Source: Candidatus Moraniibacteriota bacterium
GTDB lineage: Bacteria > Patescibacteriota > Minisyncoccia > Moranbacterales > UBA1568
Length of the DNA stretch: 64,000 bases
Direction: 5' to 3'
Assembly: GCA_037133435.1 (NCBI GenBank)
Contig: JBAXOD010000003.1
Span: 9,502 to 73,501, forward strand
Positions 3,816 to 48,167 of this stretch are shown one piece after another. Numbering within the stretch: the stretch's first letter is position 1; the number at the start of each line of letters is the position of its first letter. The translations under genes and the position numbers were made by a program. The notes beneath the pieces were generated by a model. The model did not search any database and had not been told where the DNA came from. It was given only the letters and a program-made list of their open reading frames with translations.

Positions 3816-4210
3816 TGGAGTTGATGGGAATCGCACCCATGTCCAAACGGGTTTTTCCAGAACCGCCTACAAGCATAGTCAGCCTTTGGTTCCCCGGAAA
3901 GCGGAAAGGCGGACGGAAATCCTTCCGGGACCTCTTTTCATGCCGGGCCGACTGAGTGAATCGAGGTAAGACTCGTGTCGGTCCGCCTGATGGTATGACA
4001 CCGGATGACCCTTATCAGACATCGGGGGTCCGATGGCTCTCGCGAATTAGGCGAGGGCTGAAGCGAAAGACGGGGAGAACGCGTTAGCGAACGCCATCTT
4101 CACCTTTGATACGATGTTGGCAGTTATCGTGTGCGGGGATTTTTTACGATGATTCCCCATCATCGGCTTGCAGGTTCTGAATGAACGCGCTGTCGAAACT
4201 AAACAACCCC
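3816..4210 (-). ncRNA. ssrA: tmRNA (SsrA)
   Basis: The minus-strand 5' end reads GGGGUUGUUUAGUUUCGACAGCG (compare E. coli GGGGCUGAUUCUGGAUUCGACGGG). The 3' end reads AUGGG-UGCGAUU-CCCAU-CAACUCC-A (T-arm, then acceptor 3' strand pairing with the 5' GGGGUUG, then discriminator A; CCA is not encoded). An internal in-frame reading ...AFANAFSPSFASALA-UAA is a candidate tag. It lies immediately next to smpB. Confidence 0.65.
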
Positions 4211-4279
4211 CGCCCGCAACGCTTCGCCAGCTCGCCACGCTGCGCTTGCGCTGCTGGCGAGCGTAGCGATGCGGGCGGG
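4209..4279. repeat. long GC-rich hairpin of the CCCGCCCGCAACGCTTCGC...GCGATGCGGGCGGG family, just upstream of the tmRNA 5' end
   Basis: 14-bp arms cccgcccgcaacgc / gcgatgcgggcggg with one mismatch, enclosing a second nested palindrome. The same arms recur at about 48059 and, in degraded form, inside ileS, glyQS and atpA. Confidence 0.5.
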
Positions 4280-4342
4280 CCCCTTGCCTGTAAATGCTAC
4301 GAATAATCGTTGCAAACGGGCCTCGAAACATATTGGAAAGCG

Positions 4343-4603
4343 TTATGAACGGGGACTTTCTAAGTCGCTCAGCCTTCTTTTCAAATAGGCTCTTCCAAAA
4401 CCAGTTTTCAAATCCTTTTCTCTACTGATTGCATCCGTCAAATGATTTGATGCCTCGTAATAGAGTAATATAAACGGAACGCGATTCCTCGTCGATTGGA
4501 CTTTTCCAGCATTATGCTCCTCAAATCGCCGACTCAAATCATTTGTATGTCCGACATACAGTTTATTGTCCTTGAGACTCTTAAGTACATACACATAGTA
4601 CAT
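4343..4603 (-). CDS. GIY-YIG nuclease domain protein
   Basis: 86-aa protein MYYVYVLKSLKDNKLYVGHTNDLSRRFEEHN... contains GIY-YIG core motifs. Confidence 0.7.
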   Translation of the reverse strand: MYYVYVLKSLKDNKLYVGHTNDLSRRFEEHNAGKVQSTRNRVPFILLYYEASNHLTDAISREKDLKTGFGRAYLKRRLSDLESPRS

Positions 4604-4628
4604 ATAAGTACATACACATAGTACATAT
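4584..4628. repeat. tandem direct repeat, 2 x 22 bp (agtacatacacatagtacatat) with a 23-bp period
   Basis: Read directly in the AT-rich spacer between the GIY-YIG gene and smpB. Confidence 0.5.
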
Positions 4629-4648
4629 CTCTTGCGTCATTGACAATT

Positions 4649-5095
4649 TCACTTTTCACGCATCGCCCTGCCGATGTCTTTTCCGGCCTCGCGCTTCTTG
4701 ATCGCCTCCCGTTTATCGATCTGTTTTTTTCCTTTTCCTACCGCAAATTCAAGCTTCACGAGTCGGTTCTTAGTGTACACCCGAACGGGGACCAAAGTCA
4801 AGCCTTCGACGCGCGATTTTCCTATGAGTGAGCGGATTTCTGAACGGCGCAGGAGAAGCTTCCGCGAGCGGCGGTCTTCGTGACGCGTATCCTTGTGGGC
4901 GAGCGGATATGCGGAAATCAGGGAATTCATGAGAAAGAGCTCATTCCCGTGGGCGACCACGAAGCTTCCCTTGAGACTCATATGTCCGGCTTTGGCCGAT
5001 TTCACTTCCGCTCCGGTCAGTATCAAACCCGCCTCAAACCGGTCGGTGAGGGCGTAATCGAATGGAGCGCGTCTGTTTACGGAGAGTGTTTTCAT
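4649..5095 (-). CDS. smpB: SsrA-binding protein SmpB
   Basis: 148-aa protein ...NRRAPFDYALTDRFEAGLILTGAEVKSAKAGHMSLKGSFV... matches SmpB. Adjacent to the tmRNA gene. Confidence 0.85.
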   Translation of the reverse strand: MKTLSVNRRAPFDYALTDRFEAGLILTGAEVKSAKAGHMSLKGSFVVAHGNELFLMNSLISAYPLAHKDTRHEDRRSRKLLLRRSEIRSLIGKSRVEGLTLVPVRVYTKNRLVKLEFAVGKGKKQIDKREAIKKREAGKDIGRAMREK

Positions 5096-5183
5096 GGCTT
5101 CACTCTACCGCGATACGGCTGCGTCGACAAGGTTGGGAGATATAAAAAAGGACACCTTGGTGTCCTTTGTCGTCGTTCCGGCT

Positions 5184-5366
5184 CTATTGGGCTATATACA
5201 TATTATTTCTGCGTGTTTCTAAAACGGGATCGGTTACAAATTTTTGTTCATCGTTCTCTTGTGGAACGTGCCCCTCTTTCTTTTGGGTTCCGTATTTGAT
5301 TTTATATATTTCCGCGACACGCTCGGCGGCTGACTTTCCTTTGACAGGGTTCTTTTCTTGAGTCAT
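5184..5366 (-). CDS. small Lys-rich hypothetical protein
   Basis: 60-aa ORF in an AT-rich spacer. No family recognised; it could be spurious. Confidence 0.25.
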   Translation of the reverse strand: MTQEKNPVKGKSAAERVAEIYKIKYGTQKKEGHVPQENDEQKFVTDPVLETRRNNMYIAQ

Positions 5367-5485
5367 TGCTCATCCCTCCGGATAATTGAAATGTTAACGA
5401 AATTCTTTCGACCTTGATTTTTTATCATAAATGGAAAGAGAGCGCAAGTCTTCACGATGAAGGCATTTTCCCGTAGGATGGGAAT

Positions 5486-7099
5486 ATGAAGACTCAATGG
5501 GAGGAACACATCGGGACTGCGATAGCGGAGCTGCAAGGGGAAGGCCGGCTTCCTGTTTTTGACGTGCCCAAGATCAGCGTCGAGTGGACCCGGGACGAGC
5601 GGTTCGGGGAATATGCCAGCAATGCGGCGCTCGCGCTCGCGAAGCTCGCGAAAAAATCGCCGATGGAACTCGCGAAACTTATCGCCGACAAGCTTGAATC
5701 GGCTGCGGACGGACATATCGAGGTCGCCGCGCCGGGATATATCAATATCACGCTTTCGCAGTCGGCACTTTCCGCCGTCGTGGAGGAGATTCTCGAGCGT
5801 GGCGGGAAATATGGCGACAGCGGTATCGGCGAAGGGGTGTCGGTGAACAATGAATTCGTTTCCGCGAATCCGACGGGACCGATGCATCTTGGGAACGGGC
5901 GGGGAGGGTTCTTCGGCGACGCGCTTTCGAACATCCTGCGCAAGACGGGATATACGGTCATCAGTGAATTCTACGTCAACGACGCCGGTGGACAGGTGAT
6001 GAAGCTCGGGCACAGCGTTTTGCGCGATGAGCAGGCGGTATATGAAGGGGAGTACATCGATGAGATACGGGAGCGGTTCGATATCGGCGATGAGTCCGCG
6101 GCAGACGATGCACGCGTGCGCGAGGTCGGGACGATGGCCGCGGACTTCGTTCTTGCGGAATATATCCGAAAGACGCTCGAGGAAAAGATGCATATCACGT
6201 ACGATTCCTTCATTTCGGAGCGTACGGACATCGTCGGCAAGGGATTCGCGGATCGGGCGATCTCGATACTTCGCGATAAGGGGCTGACGTATGAGCAGGA
6301 CGGAGCGCTCTTTCTTCGCACGACGGATTTCGGGGACGACAAGGATCGGGTGCTGATCAAATCCGACGGGAACCGTTCCTATTTCGCTTCGGATTGCGGT
6401 AACTTCCTCTCCAAGCTGGATCGTGGCGCGACCCGTCTCATTTTGGAGCTCGGTGCGGACCATCACGGATATGTCCCGCGCATCAATGCCGCGGCGCGTG
6501 CGCTCGGTTTCGAAGGTCGTTTCGATATCTATCTGCATCAGCTGGTACGGCTCGTGAAGGACGGCAAGGAAGTGCGCATGTCGAAGCGCGCGGGGAACGT
6601 GGTGACGATCGACGAACTCGTCGACCTGGTCGGGCACGACGTCGCACGGTTTTTCTTCCTCATGTTGTCGCTCGATACGCACATGAATTTCGACCTTGGG
6701 CTCGCAGAGGAGCGGTCGGAAAAGAACCCGGTGTATTACGTACAGTATGCGCATGCGCGGCTTTCCAGCATCCTGCGAAAGGCAGAGGAAAGCGGTTTTT
6801 CGGCGGAAGGCGCGGATTTGTCGCTTCTGGTCAACCTGAAGGAGCGAGGATTGTTTCGTGAACTTTTGCTGTTTCCCGAATTGTGCGTCGAGGTGGCGGA
6901 TACGGGCGCGGTACACAAGCTTCCGCAGTACGCGATCCGGCTTGCCGACCGACTCCATTCCTTTTATGCCGATTGCCGCGTGATCGACGAGGGAAATCGG
7001 GAGCTGTCCGTGGCACGGCTCGCGTTGGTTACGGCTATCCGGACCGTTCTCGCCGAGACGTTGCGGCTGATCGGCATCGAGCCGCTTGAAAAGATGTGA
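5486..7099 (+). CDS. argS: arginyl-tRNA synthetase
   Basis: Class I HIGH-type motif (PTGPMHLGNGRGG), ...SEFYVNDAGGQ..., and the DALR anticodon-binding region (NPVYYVQYAHARLSSILRKA). 537 aa. Confidence 0.9.
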   Translation: MKTQWEEHIGTAIAELQGEGRLPVFDVPKISVEWTRDERFGEYASNAALALAKLAKKSPMELAKLIADKLESAADGHIEVAAPGYINITLSQSALSAVVEEILERGGKYGDSGIGEGVSVNNEFVSANPTGPMHLGNGRGGFFGDALSNILRKTGYTVISEFYVNDAGGQVMKLGHSVLRDEQAVYEGEYIDEIRERFDIGDESAADDARVREVGTMAADFVLAEYIRKTLEEKMHITYDSFISERTDIVGKGFADRAISILRDKGLTYEQDGALFLRTTDFGDDKDRVLIKSDGNRSYFASDCGNFLSKLDRGATRLILELGADHHGYVPRINAAARALGFEGRFDIYLHQLVRLVKDGKEVRMSKRAGNVVTIDELVDLVGHDVARFFFLMLSLDTHMNFDLGLAEERSEKNPVYYVQYAHARLSSILRKAEESGFSAEGADLSLLVNLKERGLFRELLLFPELCVEVADTGAVHKLPQYAIRLADRLHSFYADCRVIDEGNRELSVARLALVTAIRTVLAETLRLIGIEPLEKM

Positions 7100-7374
7100 T
7101 AATCGTGATACAATGGTGGGGTAGTTTTCTGAGAACCGGTGATTCTTTCCGACTATGAAACAAACGCCAAGAGGAAAAGATGAGAAAGCATTCCTTTTCG
7201 CCGCGAAGGTGACCCTTTCGATCGTCGCAACACTGATCATCGCCGCCGGAATCGACGTATCTTCTTCCGTACATGGGGCGAAGCACTTCTTCGGGGAAGT
7301 GGCGCATGCGGCACGTGTATCATATTGAATAGCAGAGAGCATAATCGAGATTTTTACCCTGACTGTTTGCCATT

Positions 7375-7986: not shown

Positions 7987-8003
7987 CGCTATACTGGGGA
8001 TAT

Positions 8004-8483: not shown

Positions 8484-8892
8484 GAGCGTACAATACAACC
8501 GGCGTCAATGGGGCCCAGTCCGCAATGCTATGGCGTTGCAGACGGATATCACCTCTGAGCTGGCCTCATGAGAGGCAGGCGCGCCTCGGAAAGAAACGTT
8601 ATGTATGGCTGATAGTCAGCCTTCGCAAATGCATCTTATGAGGGCGGTCCGCCTTCGCAAATGCTTCGGCATGACGCTGTAGAATCCGACGGGTAGGCCC
8701 GTAATAGCCGCAATGAAGGCAAGTGCTTCCCCATTTGGTTTTTGTGAATTGGGGTTTGTGTTTTGCGAAGTGAAGGTGGTACCACGGTTTTTCCGTCCTT
8801 CCCTGTTTTTCGGGGAGGGATTTTTGTTTATAATGAGAAATGGGGTGAAATGGGTGTAAAGGGGGGAATATCGAGCGGAATACGCATTCATT

Positions 8893-9570
8893 ATGATCAA
8901 GCCGGAACGAAAACCATACGGGTATCGGGATTTACTCGCCTATAAGAAGGCCGAGGAATTACAGTTTTCCTGTATGGAATTGACTCATGTGTTTCCGAGG
9001 ATAAAGACCTTGATCGCATTGGCCGATCAGATGGATCGCTCGGCGAGGTCGGTGAAACAGAATATCGTGGAAGGGTGGAAACGGAATTCGACGAAGGAGT
9101 ATTATGATTTCCTGGGATTTTCGATCGGGGCGAATACGGAATTGGAGGAGGATTGTGACGATATTTGGAAGGGGATGTACCCGGAATTGATGAGGGAAAG
9201 GGGTGTAATGGGATGGGAACAAAAGGACAAGATGGGTGAAAGGGAAGTAACGGGTCAGGATCAAGGAGGGGAAATGGGAGCAAAGAGAGGGTTGGATATC
9301 GAGAAATTGAAATTCTATCCGTTGGATGCGGGGTTGCCGAAAGTGGTACGATTGAAATTGAGATGCAAGGAATTGAATTTCCTACTCGATCGGCTTCAAA
9401 AATCGTTGATTGAAAAGATGAAAGAGGAAGAAACCCTTTCATGGAAAGATAAACGATTCCTTGTCAAAGACGTGAAGCGGAAGGAAGAAGACTACGATGA
9501 AAAGATACTTAGGGAAAACGGATTGAAACGCCTTGAGAACGGCCAAGTAGTGGAAGATACCGAAGTATAG
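8893..9570 (+). CDS. four-helix-bundle protein (23S rRNA IVS protein / Avd-like family) with a repetitive Gly/Glu/Lys-rich C-terminal extension
   Basis: The N-terminal ~110 aa (YRDLLAYKKAEELQFSCMELTHVFPR...LADQMDRSARSVKQNIVEGWKR...EYYDFLGFSIGANTELEE) fit the PF05635-like pattern. Imperfect inverted repeats (GGGTAATGG-like motifs) lie at about 8840-8870 and 9625-9657. Confidence 0.6.
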   Translation: MIKPERKPYGYRDLLAYKKAEELQFSCMELTHVFPRIKTLIALADQMDRSARSVKQNIVEGWKRNSTKEYYDFLGFSIGANTELEEDCDDIWKGMYPELMRERGVMGWEQKDKMGEREVTGQDQGGEMGAKRGLDIEKLKFYPLDAGLPKVVRLKLRCKELNFLLDRLQKSLIEKMKEEETLSWKDKRFLVKDVKRKEEDYDEKILRENGLKRLENGQVVEDTEV

Positions 9571-9657
9571 AAAACATCGATATTTCCATTACATCCATTA
9601 TTCTCCTTACTCCTTTTTCCCATTACGCCCTTCCCCCCCATTAACCCCATTTGTCTT

Positions 9658-12600
9658 ATGTCATTCAAGAAAATAGATTCGAAATCCGATTTCCCGAAGA
9701 TGGAAGAAGAGATGCTCGCCTATTGGAAAGAGCATGACGTCTTTTCGAAGTCGGTCGGGAAGGAAGCGCCGAAGGGAGATTTCGTGTTCTATGAGGGTCC
9801 GCCGACGGCGAACGGTAAACCGGGGCTGCACCACGTGCTCGCTCGGGCGTTCAAGGACGCCATTCCGCGCTACAAGACGATGAAGGGATACCGGGTGCGA
9901 CGCAAGGCCGGGTGGGATACGCACGGATTGCCTGTCGAGCTGCAGGTGGAGAAGGCGCTCGGACTGCGGAGCAAGCAGGATATCGAGAACATCATCCCTG
10001 GTGATGCGCGTGCGAGCGTCGTCGAGTTCAACAAAAAGTGCAAGGAATCCGTCTGGGAATATCGGGATCTGTGGGAGAAACTCACGGAACGCATGGGGTA
10101 CTGGGTGGACATGGAATATCCGTATGTCACCTATGAGGACAGCTATATCGAGTCGGTCTGGTGGCAATTTTCCAAGATCGCGGAGCAAAAGGACAAGGAC
10201 GGGAACGAGCTCCTCTACCGGGGACACAAGGTCGTGCCGTACTGTTACCGGTGCGGGACGGCGCTTTCCTCGCACGAGGTGGCGCAGGGATATCAGACCG
10301 TGAAGGATAATTCGGCGTACGTGAAATTCAAAGTGAAGCCGGGACAGAGGATCGGCAATTTCGTTTCGGACGAAAAGACCTATCTCGTCGCCTGGACGAC
10401 GACGCCGTGGACGCTCCCCGGGAACGTGGCCTTGGCGGTGAGAGAGGACGCGGAGTACTCCATAGGGAAACAGGATAAACCCGCTCATCTTGAAGGCGAG
10501 GAGTTTTCTTCGATTCAGGATGATACGGTGATTCTTCTCACTGAAACGGCGAGAACGGTGATCGGTGATGAGAAGGAGCCCTTTATCGCAACGGAAAAGA
10601 TCACCGGCAAGGATTTGTCGGGCACGGAGTATGAACCGCTCTTCGCCACTTCGGAAGAGGACAACGGCAAGATGTATCGCGTCGTGTCCGACGAAGTGGA
10701 CGGTCTGCACTTCATTACGACCGATACGGGGACGGGCATCGTTCATATCGCGCCGGCGTTCGGCGAGGACGATGCGAACGTCGCGAAAGTGAGCGGTCTA
10801 CCGACCTTGCATACCGTGGACCTCGAAGGGAAAATGATGAGCGGGATTCCCGGAGCCGGTGTCGCGGTCAAGAAAAAGAACGACAAGAACAGGTATGTGG
10901 TCGATGAACTCGTCATCGCCGATCTGCGCGAACGCGGGATGCTGCTCAAGGAGGAAATCTATGAACACGAGTATCCGTTCTGTTGGCGGTGCGAGACGCC
11001 ATTGATATATTTCGCCAAGCCGTCGTGGTTCATCGCTATGAGTACGCTCCGTGACGAGCTTTCGGAAAATGCCGAGGCGATATCGTGGGTGCCGGAGCAT
11101 ATCAAGGAGGGGCGTTTCGGGGAGTGGCTCAAGAGCGCCAAGGATTGGGCGATTTCGCGTGATCGATATTGGGGGACGCCGATCCCGGTGTGGGAATGTG
11201 CCGAATGCGGACGTCGTACGGTCATCGATTCGAAAGCGAGACTCGAGGAACTTTCCGGGAAGAAACCGGAGGACCTGCACAAGCCGTATATCGACGAGGT
11301 GGAGTGGCCGTGTGAATGCGGGCAGGGGACATGCCGGCGGACGCCCGAAGTGCTCGACGTGTGGTTCGATTCCGGAGCGATGCCTTTGGCACAGTACGGA
11401 TATCCGGCAAGCGCGACCGACGAGGAGAAAGACCTGATCGGCGAAGGAAAATACTTCCCGGCGGATTATATCAGCGAGGCGATCGATCAGACCCGCGGGT
11501 GGTTCTATACGCTCCATGCGATCGCGACTTTGCTTCGCAAAGCCGGTGTCGTCGTGACGGGGAATGCGTATCGGAACGTCGTCTGTCTGGGACATATTCT
11601 CGATTCGAAGGGAAAGAAGATGTCCAAATCGATTGGGAATGTCGTTGATCCGTTCGAGATGTTCGGGAAATACGGGGCGGATGCGCTCCGGTGGTATCTC
11701 TATTCCATCAATCAGCCGGGATTGCCGAAACGCTTCGACGAGAAAGGTATGCGCGACGTGATGAACCGGATTTTCCGGATGTTGTGGAATTCATATTCGT
11801 TCTTCACGACATATGCGTCGATCGACGGGTGGGAACCCCCCCGCAACTCTTCGGGTAGTGAGGTGGGCGGGCCGAAAGAAGATATGAAGGTTTCGGAAAA
11901 TATCCTTGACCGGTGGATCTTGTCCGAGTTGCAGGTGCTGATCCGAGAAGTCGACGAATCGCTTTCATCATACGACCTGTATTTGCCGACCGCCAAGATC
12001 GAATCGTTCATCGACGAACTGTCGAACTGGTATATCCGACGCAACCGCAAGCGGTTCTGGAAAAACGAGAACGACGGCGACAAGGACTCGGCTTATGCGA
12101 CCCTCTACGAGGTGCTTGTCACGCTTTCGAAACTCATGGCTCCGTTCACCCCGTTCATCTCTGAGGAGATCTATCGGAACCTGACTGCGGGCGAGTCGGT
12201 GCATCTTGCCTTGTGGCCGGAAGCGGATGAAGGAAGGATCGACGAGAAATTGGGGACGAATATGGCGGCTGTCAGGGAAATCGTGTCTGTCGGTTTACAG
12301 AAAAGGGCGGATGCCGGAATCAAAGTAAGGCAGCCTCTCGCCTCGATTTCTCTCGGAATAAAATACGAGGAATTATTCGGCACGATTTTCGATGAGAAGA
12401 ATCAGGATTCTTTCGTGAATATCATAGTGGAGGAGTTGAACGTGAAAAAAGTCGAACTGAACATATTGCAGGCACTGCTGAATGCGAACGAAGATATCCT
12501 TTTGGATCTTGATATAACGAACCAGCTTGCGCTTGAGGGAGAGGCGCGGGAAATCATCCGGGCGATCCAGGAAGGGCGCAAGAAAGCCGGATTCGAAGTG

Positions 12601-12801: not shown

Positions 12802-13307
12802 GCAGGGTAATCATATTTTGTGGCTTACCAGGTTCGGGGAAGACGACTCTAGCATCCGAGGTTTCACGACGGATGAACATATTCTGTCTGCATAAGGATG
12901 CGATCAAGGAACGTTTGTATGGGTATCTGAACGGTACGAGTCTTGAGGATAGTCGAAGGATCGGATTTCATTCCATACGACTCCTCGTTGACCTGGCTGA
13001 TGACGCAATGAAGAACGGAACCGATATTATCATCGAGTCGACGTTCAATCATCCGGACAATGTCGAGCAATTCATAAAATGGGTGGCAGAAGGGCTGGAT
13101 GTAAGAGTAGTTGTGTGTCAGGTGGACGAAGAGGAACGTAAGCGGAGGTTCGTTAGTCGTCCTCGGCATGAGGCGTATCATGGCACGGAGAGAACCTTTT
13201 CAGAGGAGATATTTGATTACGGATTGATGACTGGAAAGAGTCTCGTGCTGGATACCGGAAGACCGCTTGCGGAAATCGTCGGGGAAGTGATGATATTTCT
13301 TTCGTGA
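12798..13307 (+). CDS. P-loop NTPase (AAA_33 / zeta-toxin-like kinase family)
   Basis: Walker A motif GLPGSGKTT near the N-terminus. 169 aa. Its start overlaps the ileS stop. Confidence 0.55.
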   Translation: MSRVIIFCGLPGSGKTTLASEVSRRMNIFCLHKDAIKERLYGYLNGTSLEDSRRIGFHSIRLLVDLADDAMKNGTDIIIESTFNHPDNVEQFIKWVAEGLDVRVVVCQVDEEERKRRFVSRPRHEAYHGTERTFSEEIFDYGLMTGKSLVLDTGRPLAEIVGEVMIFLS

Positions 13308-13328
13308 TGTAATGTTCTTGCCACGCTC

Positions 13329-14045
13329 ATGGAACTCCGACTGACCGCTATCATTCTTCGCAAACGGGAGATAGGCGAGACCGATCGCCTGTATACTTTT
13401 TTCACGCGCGAGATGGGCAAAGTGCAGGCCAGGGCGGTGGGCGTCCGCAAGCCGACCGCCAAGCTCGCCGCCGCGCTTGAGACACTCACGCTCTCGGACG
13501 TGACGGTCGTGCGCGGTCGCGGTATCGGCAAGGTGGCGGGTGCGATCGCGGAGGAATCGTTTCCGGCGCTTCGGGGCGAATACGGCGTTCTTTCGACGGG
13601 GCTCGAAACGGCCGCGGTCTTCGATCGGCTTGTGGGGCTCGAACAGCCCGATCAGACGCTGTTTTTTATGTTGTCGGAGTACCTGTCGCTTTTGGACATG
13701 TTGGCCCGAACGGGACGATCGTCCGAGGTACTACTGCTGACCGAGGCATTTTTCGTGAAAACGCTCGACGAACTCGGATACAGGATAGAGGCGGATGCGT
13801 GTGCGGTATCGGGAATGGCGCTCAACCGGGGAAACCGGTGTCTCTTCAGTCCCGAAGCGGGCGGTATCGTCACGGAGGAACACGCGGGATCGGATGCCGT
13901 GCCGATCGGCGAGAACGCGGTGAAACTCATCCGCCTCTTTCTCGGTAACAGACTCCCGTCCATTCCCAAGATACGTGCCGGAGTCGGTGATCTCGCGGAA
14001 GTGTCCCGGATCCGGAAACTGTTCCTCGATCGGGTGGTCCGATGA
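13329..14045 (+). CDS. recO: DNA repair protein RecO
   Basis: N-terminal OB-fold pattern (AIILRKREIGETDRLYTFFTREMGKVQARAVGVRK) and a C-terminal Cys-containing region (CAVSG...RC). About 238 aa. Confidence 0.7.
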   Translation: MELRLTAIILRKREIGETDRLYTFFTREMGKVQARAVGVRKPTAKLAAALETLTLSDVTVVRGRGIGKVAGAIAEESFPALRGEYGVLSTGLETAAVFDRLVGLEQPDQTLFFMLSEYLSLLDMLARTGRSSEVLLLTEAFFVKTLDELGYRIEADACAVSGMALNRGNRCLFSPEAGGIVTEEHAGSDAVPIGENAVKLIRLFLGNRLPSIPKIRAGVGDLAEVSRIRKLFLDRVVR

Positions 14046-14107: not shown

Positions 14108-16024
14108 ATGGCGTTGCAAGATCTGAACGAGGACCTTCATCAGCACGATTTCAAGAGCGACCGCGACATGCGGACGATATACGACCCGGGAGATACCCGG
14201 AAGGATAGGCTCGAGCAGGTCGATTTTCATGCGAAGAAGTGGGACGAGACGCAGATACCGGTCCGCAAGACCGTCATGCAGCGTTTTTTCGAGTTTTCGA
14301 CGAAACATTGGCGCTGGTATGTGGCCGGGATATTTCTCCTGACCGTCACCGGATTCATATTCAATTTCTCTTTTTTCGGCTCATTCCTGTTCTCGGGCGA
14401 CCGGGTCGCGGTCACGGTCGAAGGTCCGACCGAGGTGGCGAGCGGGGTCGTGGTTTCGTATACCGTTCATTGGGAGAATCGGAACATGCTCGGAGCCAGC
14501 AACGCGCAAGTCATGATCCAATTGCCGGACACGTTCCGGATGGATCCGTCGGAGGGTTTTTCGGTGAACGGAAATACGGCGACGGCTTCGGTCGGAACCA
14601 TTGGGAACTTCGGGTCCGGACAGCTGAAATTTTCCGGAAAATTCTACGGATCGAAAGGGGAACTCTCCTACCTGCATCCCAAAATCCGGTTCTCGCCGGC
14701 GGGTCTTTCGATCGTCTATGAGTCGGAAAGTCAGACCGGCGTCACGATCGCCTCGTCGCCGTTGTTTTTGGAGGTGGTCGGACCCTTGGAAGCCGCATCG
14801 GGCAACGATGTCACGTATGATATAACGTATCGCAACGACAGTGATGTGGCGTATTCGAATCTTCGTCTCGTGACCGAATATCCCGAAGGCTTCGAGTTCC
14901 GTGATGCCGATCCGCGTCCGATCGAGGGTGACAGTAAATGGCGGATCGGAAATCTGGCACCCGGTCAGAGCGGGAAAATCCAGGTACACGGGATATTGGG
15001 CGGGGACAGCAACCAAGGGAAGGTGATGTACGCGTCGATCGGTGTCCTGCAGGGGGATGGATCTTTCGTCACGTATGAGAAAAAGGAGCGGTTGATCCGT
15101 ATGGTCGTGAGTCCGCTCAGGATCGTCCAGAAGGTGAACGGAAAAGCCGATCTCTCCGCGAATCAGGGCGATTTGCTCGCGTATGAACTGACCTACAAGA
15201 ATCAGGGTGATGTCGGACTCCGGAACGTGATCGTCACGCTCGATGTGGATGCCACGCTACTCGACATGACGATGCTGCGGCTCAATAATCAGGGATCGTT
15301 CGATGTCGCGAAAAGCAGGATCACCTGGACCGCGGCCGATTTTCCGGGCTTGGCCTATCTCGGTCCGAACGAGGGCGGGACCATAACGTTCATGGTACCA
15401 GTAAAGGCGAATGTCGCGACGACCGGTCAGACGGGAAAATATCCCACGATCAAGACGACCGCGAAGATCGACAGTCCCGACGTGCCGTTTACGGCGGGAC
15501 AGAATAAGATCATCGTGAGCAGTTCGCTCGAAGTCCGCATCGGTTCGACCGTCGAATTTTCGGTGCTTGGGTTCAATACCGATACGGCGATACCGAATAC
15601 CGGCCCGATTCCGCCGAAAGTCGGTCAGGAGACGACCTACATGCTCCGTATCAGCGCGACGAATTATCTCAATGACCTCGCCGGAACGAAGGTGACGATG
15701 ACGTTGCCGACCGGTTCCCGATATACGGGGAAATTCCTGCCGGAGGATTCCTCTCTGGATTATAATGAGCGTACGAGACAGTTGATATGGGATATCGGAA
15801 GTCTGCCCGGGGGTGGTCGGGTTTCCCGCGACTTGTCGGTGCAGGTCGCCATCACGCCCGGACCGGATCAGATAAACCAGGCGCCGGAACTTCTGCAATC
15901 GGCGATTCTCGATGCGCGTGACACCTTCACCGACGGGGATATCCATCTCACGTTGCCCGGGAAGACGACGGATCTCAAGGAAGACAAAGGTATCCCATGG
16001 AACGGATATTCCGTCGTGCCATAA
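14108..16024 (+). CDS. membrane-anchored protein with repeated DUF11-like beta-sandwich domains
   Basis: One N-terminal TM helix (WRWYVAGIFLLTVTGFIFNFSFFGSFLF) followed by at least 4 repeats of a ~110-aa unit of the form ...VxGPxEAASGNDVTYDITYRNDSDV. Confidence 0.5.
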   Translation: MALQDLNEDLHQHDFKSDRDMRTIYDPGDTRKDRLEQVDFHAKKWDETQIPVRKTVMQRFFEFSTKHWRWYVAGIFLLTVTGFIFNFSFFGSFLFSGDRVAVTVEGPTEVASGVVVSYTVHWENRNMLGASNAQVMIQLPDTFRMDPSEGFSVNGNTATASVGTIGNFGSGQLKFSGKFYGSKGELSYLHPKIRFSPAGLSIVYESESQTGVTIASSPLFLEVVGPLEAASGNDVTYDITYRNDSDVAYSNLRLVTEYPEGFEFRDADPRPIEGDSKWRIGNLAPGQSGKIQVHGILGGDSNQGKVMYASIGVLQGDGSFVTYEKKERLIRMVVSPLRIVQKVNGKADLSANQGDLLAYELTYKNQGDVGLRNVIVTLDVDATLLDMTMLRLNNQGSFDVAKSRITWTAADFPGLAYLGPNEGGTITFMVPVKANVATTGQTGKYPTIKTTAKIDSPDVPFTAGQNKIIVSSSLEVRIGSTVEFSVLGFNTDTAIPNTGPIPPKVGQETTYMLRISATNYLNDLAGTKVTMTLPTGSRYTGKFLPEDSSLDYNERTRQLIWDIGSLPGGGRVSRDLSVQVAITPGPDQINQAPELLQSAILDARDTFTDGDIHLTLPGKTTDLKEDKGIPWNGYSVVP

Positions 16025-21666: not shown

Positions 21667-21793
21667 TATAAATCGGGAGTCTCCCACCCCTCAGTCATGA
21701 ATACATGACAGCTCCCCTCGGGCAGCCCGCCCGTATCACTACGTGAAACGTTGTGGACAGGGGGAGCAGGAACGTACTATAACGATATTTCTA

Positions 21794-23283
21794 TGGCGCA
21801 GATAGAGAACCTGATGGATAAGCTGGTTTCGCTTTCGAAAAGGCGCGGGTTCGTATTCCCGAGTTCGGAGATCTATGGCGGGTTCGCGGCGGTGTATGAT
21901 TTCGGACCGTACGGGGTTGAGCTTGCCCGCAATATCCGCGAAGCATGGTGGCAGGCCATGGTGCGCGAGCACGAGAATATCGTCGGTCTCGACAGTGCGA
22001 TTTTCATGCATCCGAAAGTCTGGGAGGCGTCGGGGCATGTCGGCGGATTCAGCGACCCTTTGGCCGAGTGCCGCAAGTGTCACTCGCGATTGCGGGTGGA
22101 TCATCTCCTCGAGGAGGCGGGCGTGTTCGCCGACGAAAAGATGAGCGAGGAAGAAATCAACGCGCTCTTCTCGGAACACAAAGGAAAAGTAGTCTGCCCC
22201 AAATGCGGTGGGCATGATTTCACCGAGGCGAAGAGCTTCAACTTGCTCGTGAAATCCAACCTCGGCAATTTCACCGGCGACTGGGACAAGGATCCTGCCC
22301 GCAATGCTACGGAGCATAACGTTGCAGGCGGGGCGACTTATCTGCGTGGTGAGACGTGCCAGGGCATCTACGTCAATTTCAAGAATGTGCTCGATTCGAC
22401 CCGCATGAAGGTGCCGTTCGGTATCGCACAGATCGGCAAGGCGTTCCGAAACGAGATCACCGCCCGGCAGTTCATCTTCCGCAAGCGCGAGTTCGAGCAG
22501 ATGGAGATGCAGTTCTTCGTGCATCCGGACACGGCTACGGAATTTTATGAAAAATGGCGGGCAAAACGTTTTCAGTATTATATCGACCTTGGACTCAAAC
22601 CGGAGAATTTGCAGTGGCACCAGCACGAGAACCTCGTGTTCTATGCGAAGGCGGCATGGGATATCGAGTACCGGTTCCCGTTCGGATTCAAGGAGCTCGA
22701 AGGTGTGCACAACCGGAGCAATTATGATCTGACCCAGCATTCGAAGTTCTCGGGCGTCGATCTTTCCTATCGCGACCCGCTGACGGGGGAGAAGTATATC
22801 CCGTGGATCGTCGAGACATCCGTCGGTGTGGATCGGACCTTTCTCGCCGTGCTGACCGACGCGTATACCGAAGAAGTAATCCGACCCGCCCACAATCCTT
22901 CGGATAGTGAGGCGGGCAGGGGAGTGGAAGACGAAATCAGGGTGGTGTTGAAGTTTCCGAAAAAACTCGCGCCGGTCAAGGTCGCGGTGTTCCCGCTCCT
23001 TCGCAACAAGCCCGAGCTCGTGGCTGCGGCACGCGCGATTTTCGATTCGCTCAAGGGCGATTTCGCCACCGAGTACGACGACAACGGAAATGTCGGCAAG
23101 CGCTATCGAAGACAGGACGAGATCGGCACGCCGTACTGCGTGACCGTCGACTTCGACACGGTCGGACTCGGTGAGGACCCGTCGCTCAAGGACACTGTCA
23201 CCGTGCGAGATCGCGACACGATGGAACAGATCCGTATCCCGGTTTCCGAGTTGCGCGCGTATGTCTCGGAGAATCTGAAATAG
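21794..23283 (+). CDS. glyQS: glycyl-tRNA synthetase (dimeric class II)
   Basis: The ORF track starts at 21751; the likely ATG is at about 21794 (MAQIENLMDKL...). Class II motifs and the archaeal/eukaryote-type GlyRS layout (FRNEITARQFIFRKREFEQMEMQFF, GIAQIGKAFRNE). Contains an in-frame hairpin-element insertion. Confidence 0.85.
22885..22918 (+). repeat. palindromic hairpin element inserted in-frame in glyQS
   Basis: cccgcccacaatccttcggatagtgaggcgggcagg encodes PAHNPSDSEAGRG. Arms GCCCGCC/GGCGGGC. Confidence 0.5.
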
Positions 23284-33635: not shown

Positions 33636-34062
33636 AAGTATTACTAACAACTCACAATTAACAACTGACAACGACCGAAAATACAAGAGACGAAGACACT
33701 ATATCAATCTAACAATTTATCAATATAACGATGTAGCTATCGAGTCAACGATTTGTTTCCGGAACGGTCCGGGGACATAAGTCGATTGGAAGATCTAGTG
33801 ACAGATAACAGATATTGATATAAGCATCCCCTTCTCCCTCTGGGAGAAGGTGGATCGGTACTCCGAGACGGATGAGGGTCGGGTTCAGGGACGGGTCTAA
33901 TGAATTCAGACCCTCACCTGTCAGGAATACCTGACATCCTCTCCCGGAGGGAGAGGTGACAGAAAAAGGGAGTGAGGGAGGGGAAGGTTTTGAAGTGGCA
34001 GACAGAAAGACGGAAAAAGGAACCCTATATCGCAATCTATCATTCATTGATTCAAAAACACT

Positions 34063-35601
34063 ATGGCAAACATACTCATCGAGGAACTGAAGAAACAGAT
34101 AGCCGATTTCCGATTCGAAGCGGAGAAGGAATCGATCGGTCGGATACTCGAAACCGGTGACGGCGTAGCACGCCTTTCCGGGCTTTCCGGCGTGGCGGCA
34201 TCCGAAATCATCTCGTTTGAAAGCGGGGCGGTCGGGGTCGCGCTCAATCTCGAAGAGGCCGAGGTCGGCGTGATGATGCTTTCCGGCGGCAACGGCGTCC
34301 GTGAGGGTGAGACGGCCAAGGGGACCGGGAAACTCCTCTCCATTCCTGTGTCCGATGCGATTATCGGACGGGTCGTCGATCCGCTCGGTGTGCCGCTCGA
34401 TGGGCGCGGCGAGATCGCGGGCGAGAAGAAACTCATGCCGATCGAGAAAGTCGCTCCGGGCGTCATCACCCGTCAGGGCGTGAACCAGCCGCTCCAGACC
34501 GGAATCAAGGCAATCGACGCGCTCATCCCGATCGGTCGCGGACAGCGCGAACTGATCATCGGCGATCGTCAGACCGGCAAGACCGCGATCGCGATCGATG
34601 CCATCGTGAATCAGAAGCCAGCCCACAACGCTTCACGTAGTGATGCGGGCGGGGGACAGGACGTGATCTGCGTGTATGTCGCGGTCGGTCAGAAGGAATC
34701 CAAAGTCGCGCGTATCCTCGGCGAACTTACGAAACGTGGGGCGATGGAGTATACGATCATCGTTTCGGCCGGCGCATCCGACCCGGCGGCGCTCTCGTTC
34801 CTCGCACCGTATGCCGGTTGTGCAATCGGCGAATATTTCATGGACCAAGGCAAAGATGTACTCGTCATCTATGATGATCTTTCCAAGCATGCGTGGGCGT
34901 ATCGGCAGATCGCGCTCATCTTGCGTCGTCCGCCGGGACGCGAGGCCTATCCGGGCGACGTGTTCTATCTTCATTCACGGCTCCTTGAGCGGAGCGCCAA
35001 GATGAACCAGGAGAACGGCGGCGGGTCGCTCACCGCGCTTCCGATCATTGAGACACAGGCCGGCGACGTGTCCGCCTATATCCCGACGAACGTCATTTCC
35101 ATCACCGACGGACAGATCTATCTCGAATCCGATCTCTTCCACAAGGGCATCCGCCCAGCGCTCAATGTCGGTCTCTCAGTTTCCCGCGTGGGTTCCGCCG
35201 CACAGATCAAGGCGATGAAACAGGTCGCGGGCACCTTGCGACTCGACCTTGCGCAGTTCCGCGAACTCGAGGCTTTCGCACAGTTCGGTTCCGACCTCGA
35301 CGAGAAGACCCGCTCACTCATCGAACGCGGTCGCCGGTCGGTGGAAGTCCTGAAACAGGGTCAGTATTCGCCGCTCTCCGTGGAGCAGGAAGTCGCGGTG
35401 CTCTATGCGCTCTCGCGCGGATATCTCGATACCGTGCCGGCCGACAAGATTCGTTCCTGGGAAAAGGAATTTCTCGAGTATCTCGCTTCCGAAGGGGAAG
35501 ATGTGCTTTCGGCGATCCGAGAGAAGAAAGCGCTCGACGAGGAGACGGAATCGATGTTGAAAGCGAGAATAGAAGAATTTGGAAAGAGATTTTCGGAGTA
35601 A
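34063..35601 (+). CDS. atpA: F0F1 ATP synthase subunit alpha
   Basis: P-loop [15 protein letters not shown], 512 aa. Contains a ~13-aa in-frame hairpin-element insertion ([14 protein letters not shown]) right after the P-loop helix. Confidence 0.92.
34620..34655 (+). repeat. palindromic hairpin element inserted in-frame in atpA
   Basis: gcccacaacgcttcacgtagtgatgcgggcggggga is nearly identical in its 3' arm to the intergenic copies at 4209 and 48059. Confidence 0.5.
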
Positions 35602-36732: not shown

Positions 36733-36942
36733 AAATGCACACGAAGAAAACAATGTAACAATACGGCAATAGAGTAGTGGAGCAATATGACAATGTAAAT
36801 ATCGAAAGTCGATTTGAAAGGGAGGAAGTGAGAATGAAAAATTAAGTGGATTCTTTGCTCCCACCCCTCAGTCTCGAAGACTCGACAGCTCCCCTCGGGC
36901 AGGGGAGCGGGCGGGAAAAGAATGAACGTAATCTCGTATTAG

Positions 36943-38349
<1,407 letters not shown>

Positions 38350-43555: not shown

Positions 43556-43800
43556 CTGATAACAGGAGAGTAACTGACAACTAATAACTAACAACAGATA
43601 ACAGGAAACCCGCCTTCGCTGAAACTACGGAGCGGCAAAGCAAGGAATCCCTTCCACCCCTCAGTCACGAAGACGTGACAGCTCCCCTCGGGCAGGGGAG
43701 CAGGATTCGTGAGACCTGATCAGTCTCCGTTGAAAGCTGTCAGTTATACGTTGTTAGTGCCTCTCAGCCATCAGTATTAAGTTGTGAGTCATAAGGGACT

Positions 43801-44577: not shown

Positions 44578-44711
44578 CAGGGAATAGGGGAACTGACAAC
44601 TAACAACATACAACTTATAATGGGGAACAAAAGGGATGGATTGCCACGGACGGATACGTCCTCGCAAAGACAGACGAGGATTTGTTCTCTGGTCGGCCTA
44701 AAAATCGTTGA

Positions 44712-45554: not shown

Positions 45555-45616
45555 TACCCACACGTTTATGGAAACGAAAAACGGCACGGATACGTGTCGT
45601 TTTTCGTTCTTTATAG

Positions 45617-45700
45617 TACCGCGGGAGAGACTCGAACTCTCATGGTATCGCTACCGCGGGATTTTGAGTCCCGTGTGTCTACCAGTTCCACCACCGCGGC
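45617..45700 (-). tRNA. tRNA-Leu (anticodon CAA), type II with long variable arm
   Basis: Folded by hand on the minus strand: acceptor GCCGCGG/CCGCGGU (G1-U72), 3-bp D-stem GUG/CAC, anticodon stem CGGGA/UCCCG with loop CUCAAAA, variable arm GGUAGCGAUACC, T-arm GAGAG-UUCGAGU-CUCUC, discriminator A. CCA is not encoded. Confidence 0.8.
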
Positions 45701-45940
45701 GTTTCAGCCCTTTTCTTCGGCCTCCACTAGGTTCAGGATAGGGAATTGAAAAGATAGTGTCAATGGAATATAATAGGGGAGACCTACGACTGACAACGAA
45801 CAACTTATAACGGGGAGGGGAAAGTCGTCAGGAGTGGTCGGGTCGTCGGTTGTCAGTTTGTTGTGACTTGTAAGTTTTCTCTCTGTGACTTCTGTTATTG
45901 GCTGTTAGTTGTTAGTTTTGCGTTGTTAGTGACTTCTACT

Positions 45941-46744
45941 ATGTCTAAGATCGTCGCGTTCGTGAACCAAAAGGGCGGGGTGGGGAAGACCACCTCGACC
46001 ATCAATGTCGCCCGATGCCTCGCCGAACTCGGCAAGAAGGTATTGTTGGTGGACCTCGATCCGCAGGGGAATGCCTCGTCGGGACTCGGTATCGATCCCC
46101 GCGGCATCGAGAAGAACCTCTATCATGCCATGATCGGGTCGCTTCCGCCGCAGGAAATCGTATTGTCGACGAATGTGCCGAGGCTGCATATCATTCCCGC
46201 GGCGCAGGACCTTGCCGGCGCGGAAATCGAGATGGTCCATATCGATGCGCGGGAGTTCCGATTGTATTCCGTGCTCCGTCCACTGCGTTCGTTTTATGAT
46301 TATATCTTGATCGACAGCCCACCGAGTCTCGGACTCCTTACCGTGAACGGGCTCGTCGCGAGTGACGAAGTGGTCATTCCGGTACAGACCGAATATTATG
46401 CGCTCGAGGGACTTTCCCAGCTCCTCGGAACCATCGAGCTCGTCCGTGAGCGGCTGCAACCGAACCTCAAGATCATGGGGGCGCTTTTGACGCTGTTCGA
46501 TCGCCGTAACCGGCTCGCGCAGCAGGTAGTGAACGAGGTCCGGGCGCACTTCCCGGGTCCGGTGTTCGAGACGGTCATTCCCCGTTCCGTACGACTCGCC
46601 GAGGCACCGAGCTATGGCAAATCGATCCTGGATTTCGACGCGTTTTCCAAGGGTGCCAGGGCATACAAATCCGTAGCGCGGGAGATCGTGGCGAAAGAGG
46701 ATCAGGTAACAGATAATCCGCTTCATCTCCGCAAAGCGGAGTGA
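45941..46744 (+). CDS. parA: chromosome partitioning ATPase ParA/Soj
   Basis: The ORF track starts at 45863; the likely ATG is at about 45941 (MSKIVAFVNQKGGVGKTTSTINVA). Deviant Walker A present. Confidence 0.85.
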   Translation: MSKIVAFVNQKGGVGKTTSTINVARCLAELGKKVLLVDLDPQGNASSGLGIDPRGIEKNLYHAMIGSLPPQEIVLSTNVPRLHIIPAAQDLAGAEIEMVHIDAREFRLYSVLRPLRSFYDYILIDSPPSLGLLTVNGLVASDEVVIPVQTEYYALEGLSQLLGTIELVRERLQPNLKIMGALLTLFDRRNRLAQQVVNEVRAHFPGPVFETVIPRSVRLAEAPSYGKSILDFDAFSKGARAYKSVAREIVAKEDQVTDNPLHLRKAE

Positions 46745-46869
46745 GCGGACCCGCTCGCAGCGAAGAGCGGGCAGATATCAGATAGCGGAGAACTCACAAC
46801 GGGGAACGGATTTTTTGAACGGGTAGATTTTGGGAATTGTGAATTGGTCATTGATCATTCTGAATCACT

Positions 46870-47844
46870 ATGGTACAGCAACACGGACTCGGACGCGGAC
46901 TCTCGTCGCTCATTCCTCCGAAAAAGGAAGATCGGGAAGCATCGTTCAAGGATATGACGATCAAGACCATGGAGGCACAGGGTGTCGATCTTTCGACGAC
47001 GCACGTTCCGAACGATCGGGAACGTATCGCGACTTCCGATCCGGAACCGGCCGCGTCCTCGGTAGGGGCCCCGGGCGTCACGGAAGTCCTTATTTCCGAA
47101 ATCGTTCCGAACCCGCATCAGCCGCGGTTGCATTTCGACGAGGATCGGCTCCGGGAGCTTGCGGAATCCATTCGGGAACACGGTGTCGTCCAGTCGCTGG
47201 TCGTCTCGCCGAGGCAGGATGGAACCTATGAATTGATCGCCGGAGAACGTCGGTTGAAGGCCTCGAAGCTCGCGGGACTTATGAAGGTTCCCGTGGTCAT
47301 CCGGGACGCGGACGAGCGTGAGAAACTGGAACTGGCCATCATCGAGAACGTCCAGCGTCACGATCTCAACCCGATCGAGGAAGCACGGGCGTATGCGAGA
47401 CTGATCGACGAGTTCGGTCTGATCCAAGAAGACGTGGCGAAGAAGATGGGCAAGAGCCGGAGTGCGGTCGCCAACGCGGTCCGATTGCTCGTTTTGCCGA
47501 TCGAGATCCAGCGCGCGGTCGCCGAGGGGAAGATTTCCGAGGGACATGCCAAAGTGCTCCTTTCGGTCGAGAATCCGGAAAAGCAACGTGCGGTCTTCGA
47601 GCTTATCATGAAGACCGGATTGACCGTTCGCGGGACGGAAGCCAAAGTCCGGGAATCGGTGGTGCATACGCATACGCGTCGCGTTTCCCCGGTAGCTCCC
47701 GGGCTCGTCGAGAAAGCTGACCGGATTTCTGCGGCTCTCGGGACCAAGGTCGAAGTGAAGCCGGCCGGCAAGGGCGGCCGGATCGTCGTCGAGTATTATT
47801 CGGACGAGGAACTCGAACAGATCGTCTCGAGAATCCTGCCGTGA
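46870..47844 (+). CDS. parB: chromosome partitioning protein ParB
   Basis: ParB box (ISEIVPNPHQPR), GERRLKASKLAG, HTH region. Confidence 0.85.
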   Translation: MVQQHGLGRGLSSLIPPKKEDREASFKDMTIKTMEAQGVDLSTTHVPNDRERIATSDPEPAASSVGAPGVTEVLISEIVPNPHQPRLHFDEDRLRELAESIREHGVVQSLVVSPRQDGTYELIAGERRLKASKLAGLMKVPVVIRDADEREKLELAIIENVQRHDLNPIEEARAYARLIDEFGLIQEDVAKKMGKSRSAVANAVRLLVLPIEIQRAVAEGKISEGHAKVLLSVENPEKQRAVFELIMKTGLTVRGTEAKVRESVVHTHTRRVSPVAPGLVEKADRISAALGTKVEVKPAGKGGRIVVEYYSDEELEQIVSRILP

Positions 47845-47858
47845 ATCCCTTTTCTTAG

Positions 47859-48167
47859 TATCTCTCTCAAATCTCATGTCGAACTGAAATACGGAAATTT
47901 CGATAGGAGCGCCAACCAGAGGTTGGTCACCCTCTGGGTGAAAAACCCTGAAAATCGAGGACGGGTATCCGAAGGAGATGGGGATCCCGCTGTCGTAACC
48001 TGACGATTTTTGAATGATTTGTCCGCCCGCGACGATCGCTTGGCGAGACGGTCGGGGTCCGCCCGCAACGCTTCGCGTAGCGATTCGGGCGGGCAGCCGA
48101 AATTTTCGGATTTCAGCCGGCAAGCGGATTTTTTGCCTTATAGAGGCGTTGAGATTTGAGAGAGATA
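47859..48167. repeat. 309-bp segment bounded by perfect 17-bp inverted repeats (TATCTCTCTCAAATCTC / GAGATTTGAGAGAGATA)
   Basis: Read directly. The interior contains hairpins ccagaggttgg/caccctctgggtg and a family-B hairpin (about 48059-48093). The right arm overlaps the TTG start of the next ORF. Confidence 0.4.

Follow-up and report, generated by a model that had tools for sequence, protein, structure and literature searches.

A mobile 36-bp palindrome in frame within essential bacterial genes, with a small GIY-YIG nuclease as its probable partner

A 64-kb stretch of a Candidatus Moraniibacteriota genome (the window, by which we mean the whole stretch of DNA that was analysed) holds seven copies of a short palindrome, four of them in frame within protein genes: one in ileS, one in atpA and two in glyQS. 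We use the name PAL for the 36-nt palindrome family described here. PAL is a discrete element, 36 bp long, whose ends are sharp and whose flanks are random, and target-site duplications are absent. PAL inserts into new sites and is present or absent between near-identical genomes, and it prefers the centre or edge of DNA hairpins, whether these belong to other palindromes or to the D-arm or acceptor end of tRNA and tmRNA genes. It crosses phyla and has become fixed in frame in essential genes. The best explanation overall, and one that we regard as fairly probable, is a mobile palindrome family for which a small GIY-YIG nuclease, encoded in the window itself, is the probable partner. An earlier reading of the same DNA (the original prediction) had proposed a palindrome family inserted in frame into ileS, glyQS and atpA, analogous to the Rickettsia palindromic elements (RPEs); it missed the near-identity of PAL across phyla and the candidate partner gene at 4343-4603.

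Results

Seven copies of the palindrome in the window

Copies in the window were located by reading the sequence, by a mismatch scan to the consensus and with a profile built from the copies (Table 1). Their consensus, CCCGCCCGCAACGCTTCGCGTAGCGATGCGGGCGGG, is GC-rich and 36 nt long, in a window of 54% G+C. Five copies were found by the profile at E <= 3.5e-9 (best 5e-11) and the copy at 4209 at 3e-4, whereas 100 dinucleotide shuffles gave 0 matches to the consensus with up to 3 mismatches. The family that had been proposed is thus real, and the shuffles and the profile rule out a similarity no better than chance for GC-rich DNA. The host genes were named correctly as well, with NCBIfam matches at 8.8e-274 for ileS, 1.7e-178 for glycine-tRNA ligase and 1.7e-237 for atpA. 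The nearest relatives of the window's AtpA, GlyRS and IleRS are all from Candidatus Moranbacteria/Moraniibacteriota metagenome-assembled genomes (MAGs), and an NCBI Moraniibacteriota MAG contains a protein that matches the IleRS at 100% identity.

Other details of the original prediction need revision. The copies that it listed are genuine and correctly placed, give or take 1–3 nt, but it overlooked the first of the two glyQS insertions and the minus-strand copy in the glyQS leader. The profile finds neither of the variants that had been placed at 46745 and 48904, and the first of them lies in a different repeat-like stretch. Neither intergenic copy is quite the perfect hairpin that had been described: the one downstream of parB has imperfect arms, and at 4209-4279 the PAL arms are perfect, but in place of one long hairpin there is a PAL interrupted by a second palindrome. 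This split copy overlaps the 5′ end of the tmRNA by 2 nt.

Table 1. PAL copies and associated genes in the window
Feature	Position	Strand	Remarks
PAL, split	4209-4279	+	perfect arms, split at the exact centre by an unrelated 35-nt palindrome; flanked by the GIY-YIG stop codon and the 5′ end of the tmRNA
PAL in ileS	11836-11871	+	in frame, encodes PPRNSSGSEVGG; 6 mismatches to the consensus, hairpin lost
PAL in glyQS leader	21726-21761	-	non-coding; at the loop-stem junction of a second-family hairpin
PAL in glyQS, site A	22294-22332	+	in frame, 39 nt, encodes PARNATEHNVAGG; sister variant, extra GAG at the exact centre
PAL in glyQS, site B	22885-22920	+	in frame, encodes PAHNPSDSEAGR
PAL in atpA	34618-34653	+	in frame, 12 residues, surface loop after the P-loop helix
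PAL downstream of parB	48058-48093	+	near consensus, intergenic; one wobble and one mismatch in the arms
tmRNA (ssrA)	3813-4210	-	structured-RNA gene beside the GIY-YIG and PAL cassette
GIY-YIG nuclease gene	4343-4603	-	stand-alone, 86 aa, UPF0213/COG2827-like; candidate cognate enzyme
smpB	4649-5095	-	upstream neighbour of the cassette

Two further observations concern repeats next to PAL copies. A degenerate PAL-like stretch, TCCGCCCGCGACGATCGCTTGGCGAGACGGTCGGGG, lies at 48022-48057, directly upstream of the copy downstream of parB; it is not significant and perhaps represents an old tandem copy. A second repeat family of ~50 nt (…CCCACCCCTCAGTCAYGAAKACRTGACAGCTCCCCTCGGGCAGGGGAGC…), with its own hairpin, occurs in the window at 21680-21770, at 43644-43705 and, in reverse complement, at 36849-36912, as well as in the relative L118 (relatives are given by our own L and P labels); the copy at 21680 is the one interrupted by PAL.

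Coding copies are clean insertions

Whether the extra residues were ancestral or inserted was the test set by the original prediction, and the answer is insertion: close orthologues of AtpA, IleRS and GlyRS do not have them, and the DNA differs by clean insertions of 36–39 nt, which give the proteins extra loops of 12–13 residues. In AtpA, 110 of the 120 nearest proteins read NQK-GQD without a break, and the window protein and nine others carry 12–15 extra residues exactly there. On a tree built without the insert, the carriers fall in at least five separate places and are polyphyletic. The window protein's neighbours at 98.4–99% identity have no insert, nor do those of P0036 at 99.6%. In L118, which is syntenic and 91% identical over the atpA DNA, the site is empty, with CAGAAG running directly into GGACAG where the window has 36 nt between the two. 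Solved F1 alpha structures show a 12-residue gap opposite the insert, and the mitochondrial alpha loop is longer there, which marks the site as a permissive surface loop. A three-taxon site-pattern scan revealed no clustering around the atpA insert that would indicate a co-conversion tract, a result that speaks neither for nor against homing-type conversion; the patchy distribution of the insert may reflect re-insertion, precise excision or short conversion tracts. The derived changes common to the atpA copies of the window and P0001 were at first read as common descent followed by precise loss; that reading was weakened when the same three changes proved to define a sub-family that is present at 21726 too.

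Among the 120 nearest IleRS proteins no other carries the ileS insert, which, relative to L121, is a clean 36-nt insertion between TGGGAA and CC. For GlyRS, relatives of 86–88% identity (469 aa) lack both inserts and relatives of 82–92% identity carry inserts; P0121 and P0122 have the site B insert with identical DNA, and P0123 lacks it. The two sites in GlyRS and the one in IleRS all lie in hypervariable linkers, which in relatives carry other in-frame repeat peptides. These include SCHSREGGNP…LDPRVKPEDD, DPSPDGSRAGW / DLPTGQAGW and PSTSSGQ, in IleRS of P0256, P0261, P0292 and P0310 and in GlyRS of P0144-P0222, P0136 and P0154. Because such peptides occupy the same linkers in relatives, several unrelated repeat families colonise these two enzymes.

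An invariant unit in many phyla

We scanned 185,579 species genomes with a 25-nt degenerate core, a search that detects near-consensus copies only and for which we estimate a chance expectation of <0.1 match. PAL was found at at least 115 loci, so that the search of other genomes proposed in the original prediction extends the family well beyond the window. The genomes examined are all MAGs or metagenome contigs, with taxon labels as deposited. Many of the matches listed are in Verrucomicrobiota, including contigs of 1.5–5 Mb; others are in many Patescibacteria classes, in Margulisbacteria and in MAGs labelled Bdellovibrionales, Terriglobales, Lentisphaerae and Gammaproteobacteria. Among these matches, the 36-mer is almost unchanged across loci whose local G+C ranges from 28 to 66%. 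Among 2.9 million viral contigs there were only two matches, so PAL is not mainly phage-borne.

The limits of the unit are sharp. In 118 distinct copies from other genomes, among the matches listed, conservation is near total over exactly 36 positions and drops to background from −7 and +30, and the flanks have random composition with no common motif. The unit is therefore exactly 36 nt, with variants of 36–39 nt. Its ends are CCCG... and ...CGGG, and GTAG occurs internally only. Among 117 of the listed copies there was no signal of a target-site duplication, in agreement with the clean insertions in the window, and none of a stem extending beyond the ends; no flanking target tetranucleotide is conserved.

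Folded as single-stranded DNA, the consensus forms a GC stem of 10 bp and, within it, a second stem of 4 bp (−18.5 kcal/mol, z = −4.7). The coding copies have mostly lost this hairpin, with −7.3 kcal/mol for the atpA copy and −5.7 kcal/mol for the ileS copy when folded as DNA. Two common sub-variants differ by a linked change of C/G to T/A at positions 12 and 20 of the 36-mer (98 C-G, 15 T-A and 4 mixed among the matches listed), a linkage compatible with an alternative inner hairpin, ACGC-TTC-GCGT, or with no more than two lineages. G-T wobbles are strand-asymmetric at a single arm position only (C/T at −4), and for this reason we do not take the asymmetry as a sign of an RNA or single-strand role. 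No T-run of the kind found at intrinsic terminators follows the 3′ end, positions +30 to +50 being random. A scan of the window with the Rfam 15 covariance models at gathering thresholds yielded no family for PAL and matched only the tmRNA and one tRNA; a permissive scan around 48058-48093 gave no match at E <= 1. PAL copies do not form arrays like those of CRISPR repeats, being dispersed, with L056 (a 136-nt repeat of tRNA fragments) as the sole tandem case.

Five of the six reading frames through PAL are open, and one of these, the PARNAS frame, encodes a hydrophilic 12-residue peptide capped by Pro and Gly. Among the matches listed, 33 copies from other genomes, about a third, lie in open reading frames (ORFs) that extend for at least 60 codons on both sides, and 20 of these 33 use the PARNAS frame. 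The single preferred frame noticed in the window therefore holds elsewhere; such a bias shows selection on the peptide and is an argument for translation of the inserts. All ten of the long host ORFs that were checked contain Pfam domains. They include a Ser/Thr kinase and a surface protein in Verrucomicrobia, RecJ, Tgt, a type IV coupling protein, an RNase PH-domain (PNPase-like) protein, a radical-SAM enzyme and a glycosyltransferase; the copy in UvrB reads PARIATRSVAGG and that in UvrA reads PPATLRVAMRAG.

PAL spreads by copying and nests in palindromes

The window copies form sub-families. The atpA and 21726 copies have three derived changes in common, and the ileS and glyQS site B copies have three others; the exact variant CCTGCCCGAAACGCTTCGCGTAACGATGCGGGCGGG is found in atpA of L203 and in glyQS site A of L205. 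Sub-families with common derived substitutions indicate that copying is how PAL spreads. Site A of glyQS is in a different state in each of four related genomes: an empty site, a sub-variant of family A, the sister variant with a central GAG (the window) and the sister variant with a nested family-A copy. In the last of these, the DNA of P0122, a complete family-A copy sits exactly between positions 18 and 19 of the sister variant. Insertion at the centre of a palindrome is also seen at 4209-4279 in the window and in L018, and several PAL copies adjacent to GIY-YIG genes have extra bases at the centre.

A gene for a small GIY-YIG nuclease lies beside some PAL copies

The split copy at 4209-4279 lies beside a gene for an 86-aa protein that matches PF01541 at 5.5e-15 and consists of the catalytic domain only, with no separate DNA-binding domain. 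Among solved proteins, its closest relatives are BH0048 and EF2693 of UPF0213 (PDB 1zg2 at 2.9e-6), and its C-terminal motif, LKTGFGRAYLKRRL, is conserved across phyla. The family is large, with 986 cluster representatives at E <= 1e-10, and has no assigned function in the libraries searched. The nuclease proteins are only 55–78% identical. As a side observation, the 5′ end of the window ORF is tandemly duplicated at 4581-4626, where a 23-nt sequence (ATGTACTATGTGTATGTACTTA) occurs twice, the two copies being mutually out of frame.

The association between gene and palindrome is seen from both sides. Starting from the palindrome, a GIY-YIG homologue was present in 15 of 116 sources (14 of the 115 palindrome-chosen loci, plus the window), and 13 of the 16 such genes lay within 150 nt of PAL (P = 4.7e-12), both counts being among the matches listed. 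Starting from the protein, we assembled 90 loci, of which 80 came from metagenomes and were chosen solely by the protein; the others were nine genome loci and the window. A family-A PAL lay within 50 nt of the gene in 15 of the 80, and a palindrome with CCYGCCYGC arms lay within about 90 nt in 36 of the 90. All 36 palindrome-bearing loci fall in one half of the protein tree, where tree neighbours carry the same centre variant. The window's own glyQS site A copy is the same variant as the PAL beside the GIY-YIG gene of L131. The GIY-YIG gene is the only recurrent neighbour of PAL, and no insertion sequence of the DDE type was seen next to the copies.

GIY-YIG genes without CCYGCCYGC palindromes, which belong to the other protein clade (L139, L149, L154, L184, L196 and others), are often flanked by CCCCGTTAGAG / CTCTAACGGGG palindromes. 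These palindromes and that clade may form a second pairing of nuclease and repeat.

Cassettes at tRNA and tmRNA genes

In about 24 of 60 protein-chosen loci, a tRNA or tmRNA gene follows the GIY-YIG ORF on the same strand at a distance of 0–90 nt. The tRNA identities are diverse (Lys, Gln, Leu, Thr, Ile, Arg, Met and Asn), and the cassettes have a common order: tRNA nucleotides 1 to x, PAL, nucleotides x+1 to y, a few nucleotides, the ORF from ATG to stop, a few nucleotides and then the intact tRNA. The split point x lies in the D-arm, at nucleotides 9–12 or 17–21, and the segment from x+1 to y is 6–17 nt long. Since the duplicated fragment agrees with the local tRNA, it must have been made on site. 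Some Verrucomicrobial PAL copies lie inside tRNA-Val fragments beside a short ORF of the same type as that at 4343-4603 in the window, and these loci are a mirror image of the common order. In Patescibacteria cassettes, PAL is at the extreme 5′ end of the tmRNA, a position at which duplication would not be needed. In the relative L121, smpB and tmRNA are present and the cassette is absent.

The tandem case noted above lies in a Chthoniobacterales MAG (L056, 4430-4990), where four tandem 136-nt units, each made of tRNA-Val nucleotides 1–22, PAL and 74 nt, stand upstream of an intact tRNA-Val and a GIY-YIG gene. The ORF there ends short of the conserved C-terminal motif and is apparently degraded.

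Discussion

How PAL may move

The adjacency of gene and palindrome, their reciprocal enrichment and the co-variation of palindrome variant with protein clade all point to the GIY-YIG protein as the cognate nuclease. On balance, we think that this small stand-alone enzyme moves PAL, or at least recognises and cuts it. Recognition by a conserved nuclease would explain the near-invariance of PAL in hosts of 28–66% G+C. The nuclease gene and PAL would together form a cassette that is parked at tRNA and tmRNA genes and moved between phyla. Joining would be left to host repair or ligation, since GIY-YIG enzymes form no covalent intermediate. A length of 36 nt corresponds to 12 codons, and insertion of the unit consequently never shifts the downstream frame; as the PARNAS peptide is hydrophilic, with Pro and Gly as caps, copies that land in this reading in permissive surface loops or linkers of essential proteins would survive and be translated. 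Coding copies would then decay and lose the hairpin, the present state of those in ileS, glyQS and atpA.

We suggest more tentatively, and with somewhat more doubt than confidence, that PAL and the gene of 80–90 aa constitute an undescribed class of bacterial mobile element: one that has a nuclease only and a single invariant 36-bp palindrome, whose gene is parked at tRNA, tmRNA and possibly rRNA genes through local duplications of gene fragments, whose palindrome is scattered into hairpins and breaks genome-wide, and which crosses phyla. In the literature searched we found no published description of PAL, only tangential papers; most subscription journals were outside its scope.

Several points weigh against the partnership of nuclease and palindrome. 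To our knowledge, GIY-YIG nucleases are not transposases, and they cannot ligate. The gene is near only about 12% of palindrome loci, although this is what a non-autonomous element would be expected to show. The orientation of PAL relative to the ORF varies, and the co-variation of PAL variant with nuclease clade could partly reflect common ancestry of the hosts. Some of the taxon labels, which come from MAG records, may be mis-binned. Lastly, the related contig L119 has a gene like those for RAYTs, the tyrosine transposases associated with repetitive extragenic palindromes (REPs). That gene, at 8957-9511 of L119, is a RAYT/IS200-like Y1 transposase gene 500 nt upstream of an insert-free atpA allele, and its product seems to include a peptide derived from a repeat (…GAGPCACPNEEGRPQGVAPT…).

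Alternative explanations

In the main rival explanation the nuclease stays, but PAL is what it targets, or a scar, and not what it carries. The GIY-YIG protein would be a free-standing homing endonuclease of structured-RNA genes, PAL its recognition or cleavage site, a repair scar or an immunity insert, and solo copies the outcome of ectopic cleavage followed by repair that copied only the 36 nt. The cassettes at tRNA genes lend this some credit, as PAL there always lies in a non-functional duplicated tRNA fragment 6–17 nt from the ORF junction, much like the offset between GIY-YIG cleavage and insertion; the cassette is present or absent between relatives, and the same atpA site near the P-loop has been filled repeatedly. 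We nevertheless consider it unlikely, given that the 86-aa protein lacks a separate DNA-binding domain, that the random flanks of solo copies offer no common target or homology for repair, and that many tRNA identities are involved, each with a locally made duplication. A more doubtful proposal is that PAL is an ordinary repeat of the REP/REPIN type (a REPIN being a REP doublet that forms a hairpin), moved by a RAYT of the Y1/HUH kind encoded elsewhere in the genome, and that both PAL and the GIY-YIG gene simply favour hairpin-rich DNA near tRNA genes. The size and palindromic shape of PAL would suit a REP, the lack of a target-site duplication would suit single-strand Y1 transposition, and L119 supplies a RAYT-like gene near atpA. 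Yet PAL has no GTAG or CGTC tag at an end, by the criterion for REPs (PMC3733652), its flanks hold no conserved target tetranucleotide, and tblastn found no RAYT homologue in the 64-kb window. REPs, moreover, are extragenic and confined to single species, whereas PAL crosses phyla and has about one third of its copies inside genes, and it is the GIY-YIG tree that the palindrome variant follows.

The two remaining explanations dispense with mobility. PAL might be a cis element that benefits the host (a terminator, an mRNA stabiliser or a protein-binding or nucleoid site) and is kept by selection, its in-frame copies being accidental. Strong conservation and the position of intergenic copies at gene ends, after parB and before the tmRNA, are what such a role would predict. 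It is nonetheless very improbable: PAL has random flanks, no T-run and no Rfam match, its copies occur inside essential coding regions and then decay, the identical sequence recurs in unrelated phyla of very different G+C, and insertions are polymorphic between near-identical strains. The idea that the inserts are ancestral or convergent low-complexity loops, alike through GC-rich composition, draws on the natural variability of the loops concerned, including the longer mitochondrial alpha loop at the atpA site. We give it practically no credence. It is refuted by the shuffles, with 0 chance matches, by the insert-free AtpA relatives and by empty sites in atpA, ileS and glyQS, in relatives up to 99.6% identical; identical 36-mers in unrelated genes and phyla likewise stand against it.

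Relation to known systems

RPEs are reportedly selfish palindromic repeats that lie in frame in housekeeping genes, where they are translated as extra surface peptides, and also occur in RNA genes and intergenic DNA. They are about 100–150 bp long and confined to Rickettsia, and we know of no partner enzyme for them. PAL resembles them in being a palindromic repeat in frame in protein genes and probably translated inside housekeeping proteins, so the analogy drawn in the original prediction is apt as regards outcome. PAL is not an RPE, however: it is 36 bp long, near-identical across phyla and paired with a GIY-YIG gene, and its hosts are Patescibacteria, Verrucomicrobiota and others. This separation from RPE-1 to RPE-8 is made by description, not by sequence.

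The yeast mitochondrial GC clusters, optional in var1, are likewise short, GC-rich, palindromic and mobile; some are in frame, they insert into one another, and homing-endonuclease genes occur in the same genome. PAL is similarly GC-rich, palindromic, mobile, tolerated in frame and able to nest in its own kind. In contrast to PAL, the GC clusters are organellar, belong to other sequence families and prefer AT-rich targets, and we know of no dedicated small GIY-YIG partner for them at tRNA genes.

With REPs and REPINs, PAL has in common a palindrome in the 20–40 bp range, a high copy number (7 in 64 kb) and the absence of target-site duplications, and, as with RAYTs, a single partner gene is flanked by a cognate repeat copy while repeat variant and protein co-vary. 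Unlike in those systems, the partner is a GIY-YIG protein and not a Y1/HUH transposase, PAL is not species-specific, and many copies (4 of 7 in the window and about a third elsewhere, among the matches listed) are inside ORFs. The clean insertions also set PAL apart from miniature inverted-repeat transposable elements (MITEs), which make target-site duplications. Free-standing GIY-YIG homing endonucleases, such as those of the phage T4 seg genes and the I-TevI family, resemble the PAL nuclease in their domain, their position beside conserved genes, their patchy presence between relatives and a presumed offset between cut and insertion; they differ in exceeding 200 aa, in having a DNA-binding domain, in acting at one cognate site by homology and in having no dispersed short repeats.

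A parallel within the phylum is a report that rRNA genes of the candidate phyla radiation carry GIY-YIG-encoding, non-intron insertion sequences at the tops or bases of stem-loops, which were judged not to spread by classical homing (PMC11270868). Phylum, nuclease superfamily and the choice of stem-loops in structured-RNA genes all agree with the PAL cassette, but that study covers rRNA genes and describes no conserved 36-bp palindrome, no in-frame protein insertions and no tRNA/tmRNA cassette. GIY-YIG genes are also listed among transfers from Patescibacteria to other bacteria (PMC12455944).

Implications

In-frame selfish repeats in essential genes have been treated as a Rickettsia curiosity. 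PAL behaves in this way in at least two major phyla, in hosts that include ATP synthase, aminoacyl-tRNA synthetases, UvrA/UvrB, RecJ and Tgt, and thereby offers a general and dateable mechanism by which conserved proteins gain loops. It also serves as a warning for alignments, phylogenies and gene calling in MAGs. The pairing gives a large GIY-YIG family a testable function and points to mobility without a transposase or recombinase of known class. If PAL does represent a new class of mobile element, essential proteins across phyla would, as a side effect, repeatedly gain 12-residue loops from it.

A further observation concerns the ATP-synthase operon of L118, the relative with the empty atpA site. 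It contains four genes that are absent from the window, at 4388-4735, 9223-9579, 12973-13329 and 15010-15369: three are small and of the DUF559 (Vsr-like endonuclease) kind, and one is a 23S_rRNA_IVP gene. At least two of the DUF559 copies, those at 9223-9579 and 12973-13329, are preceded by duplicates of window positions 33738-33958. The DUF559 genes of L118 are another small nuclease cassette that duplicates its target.

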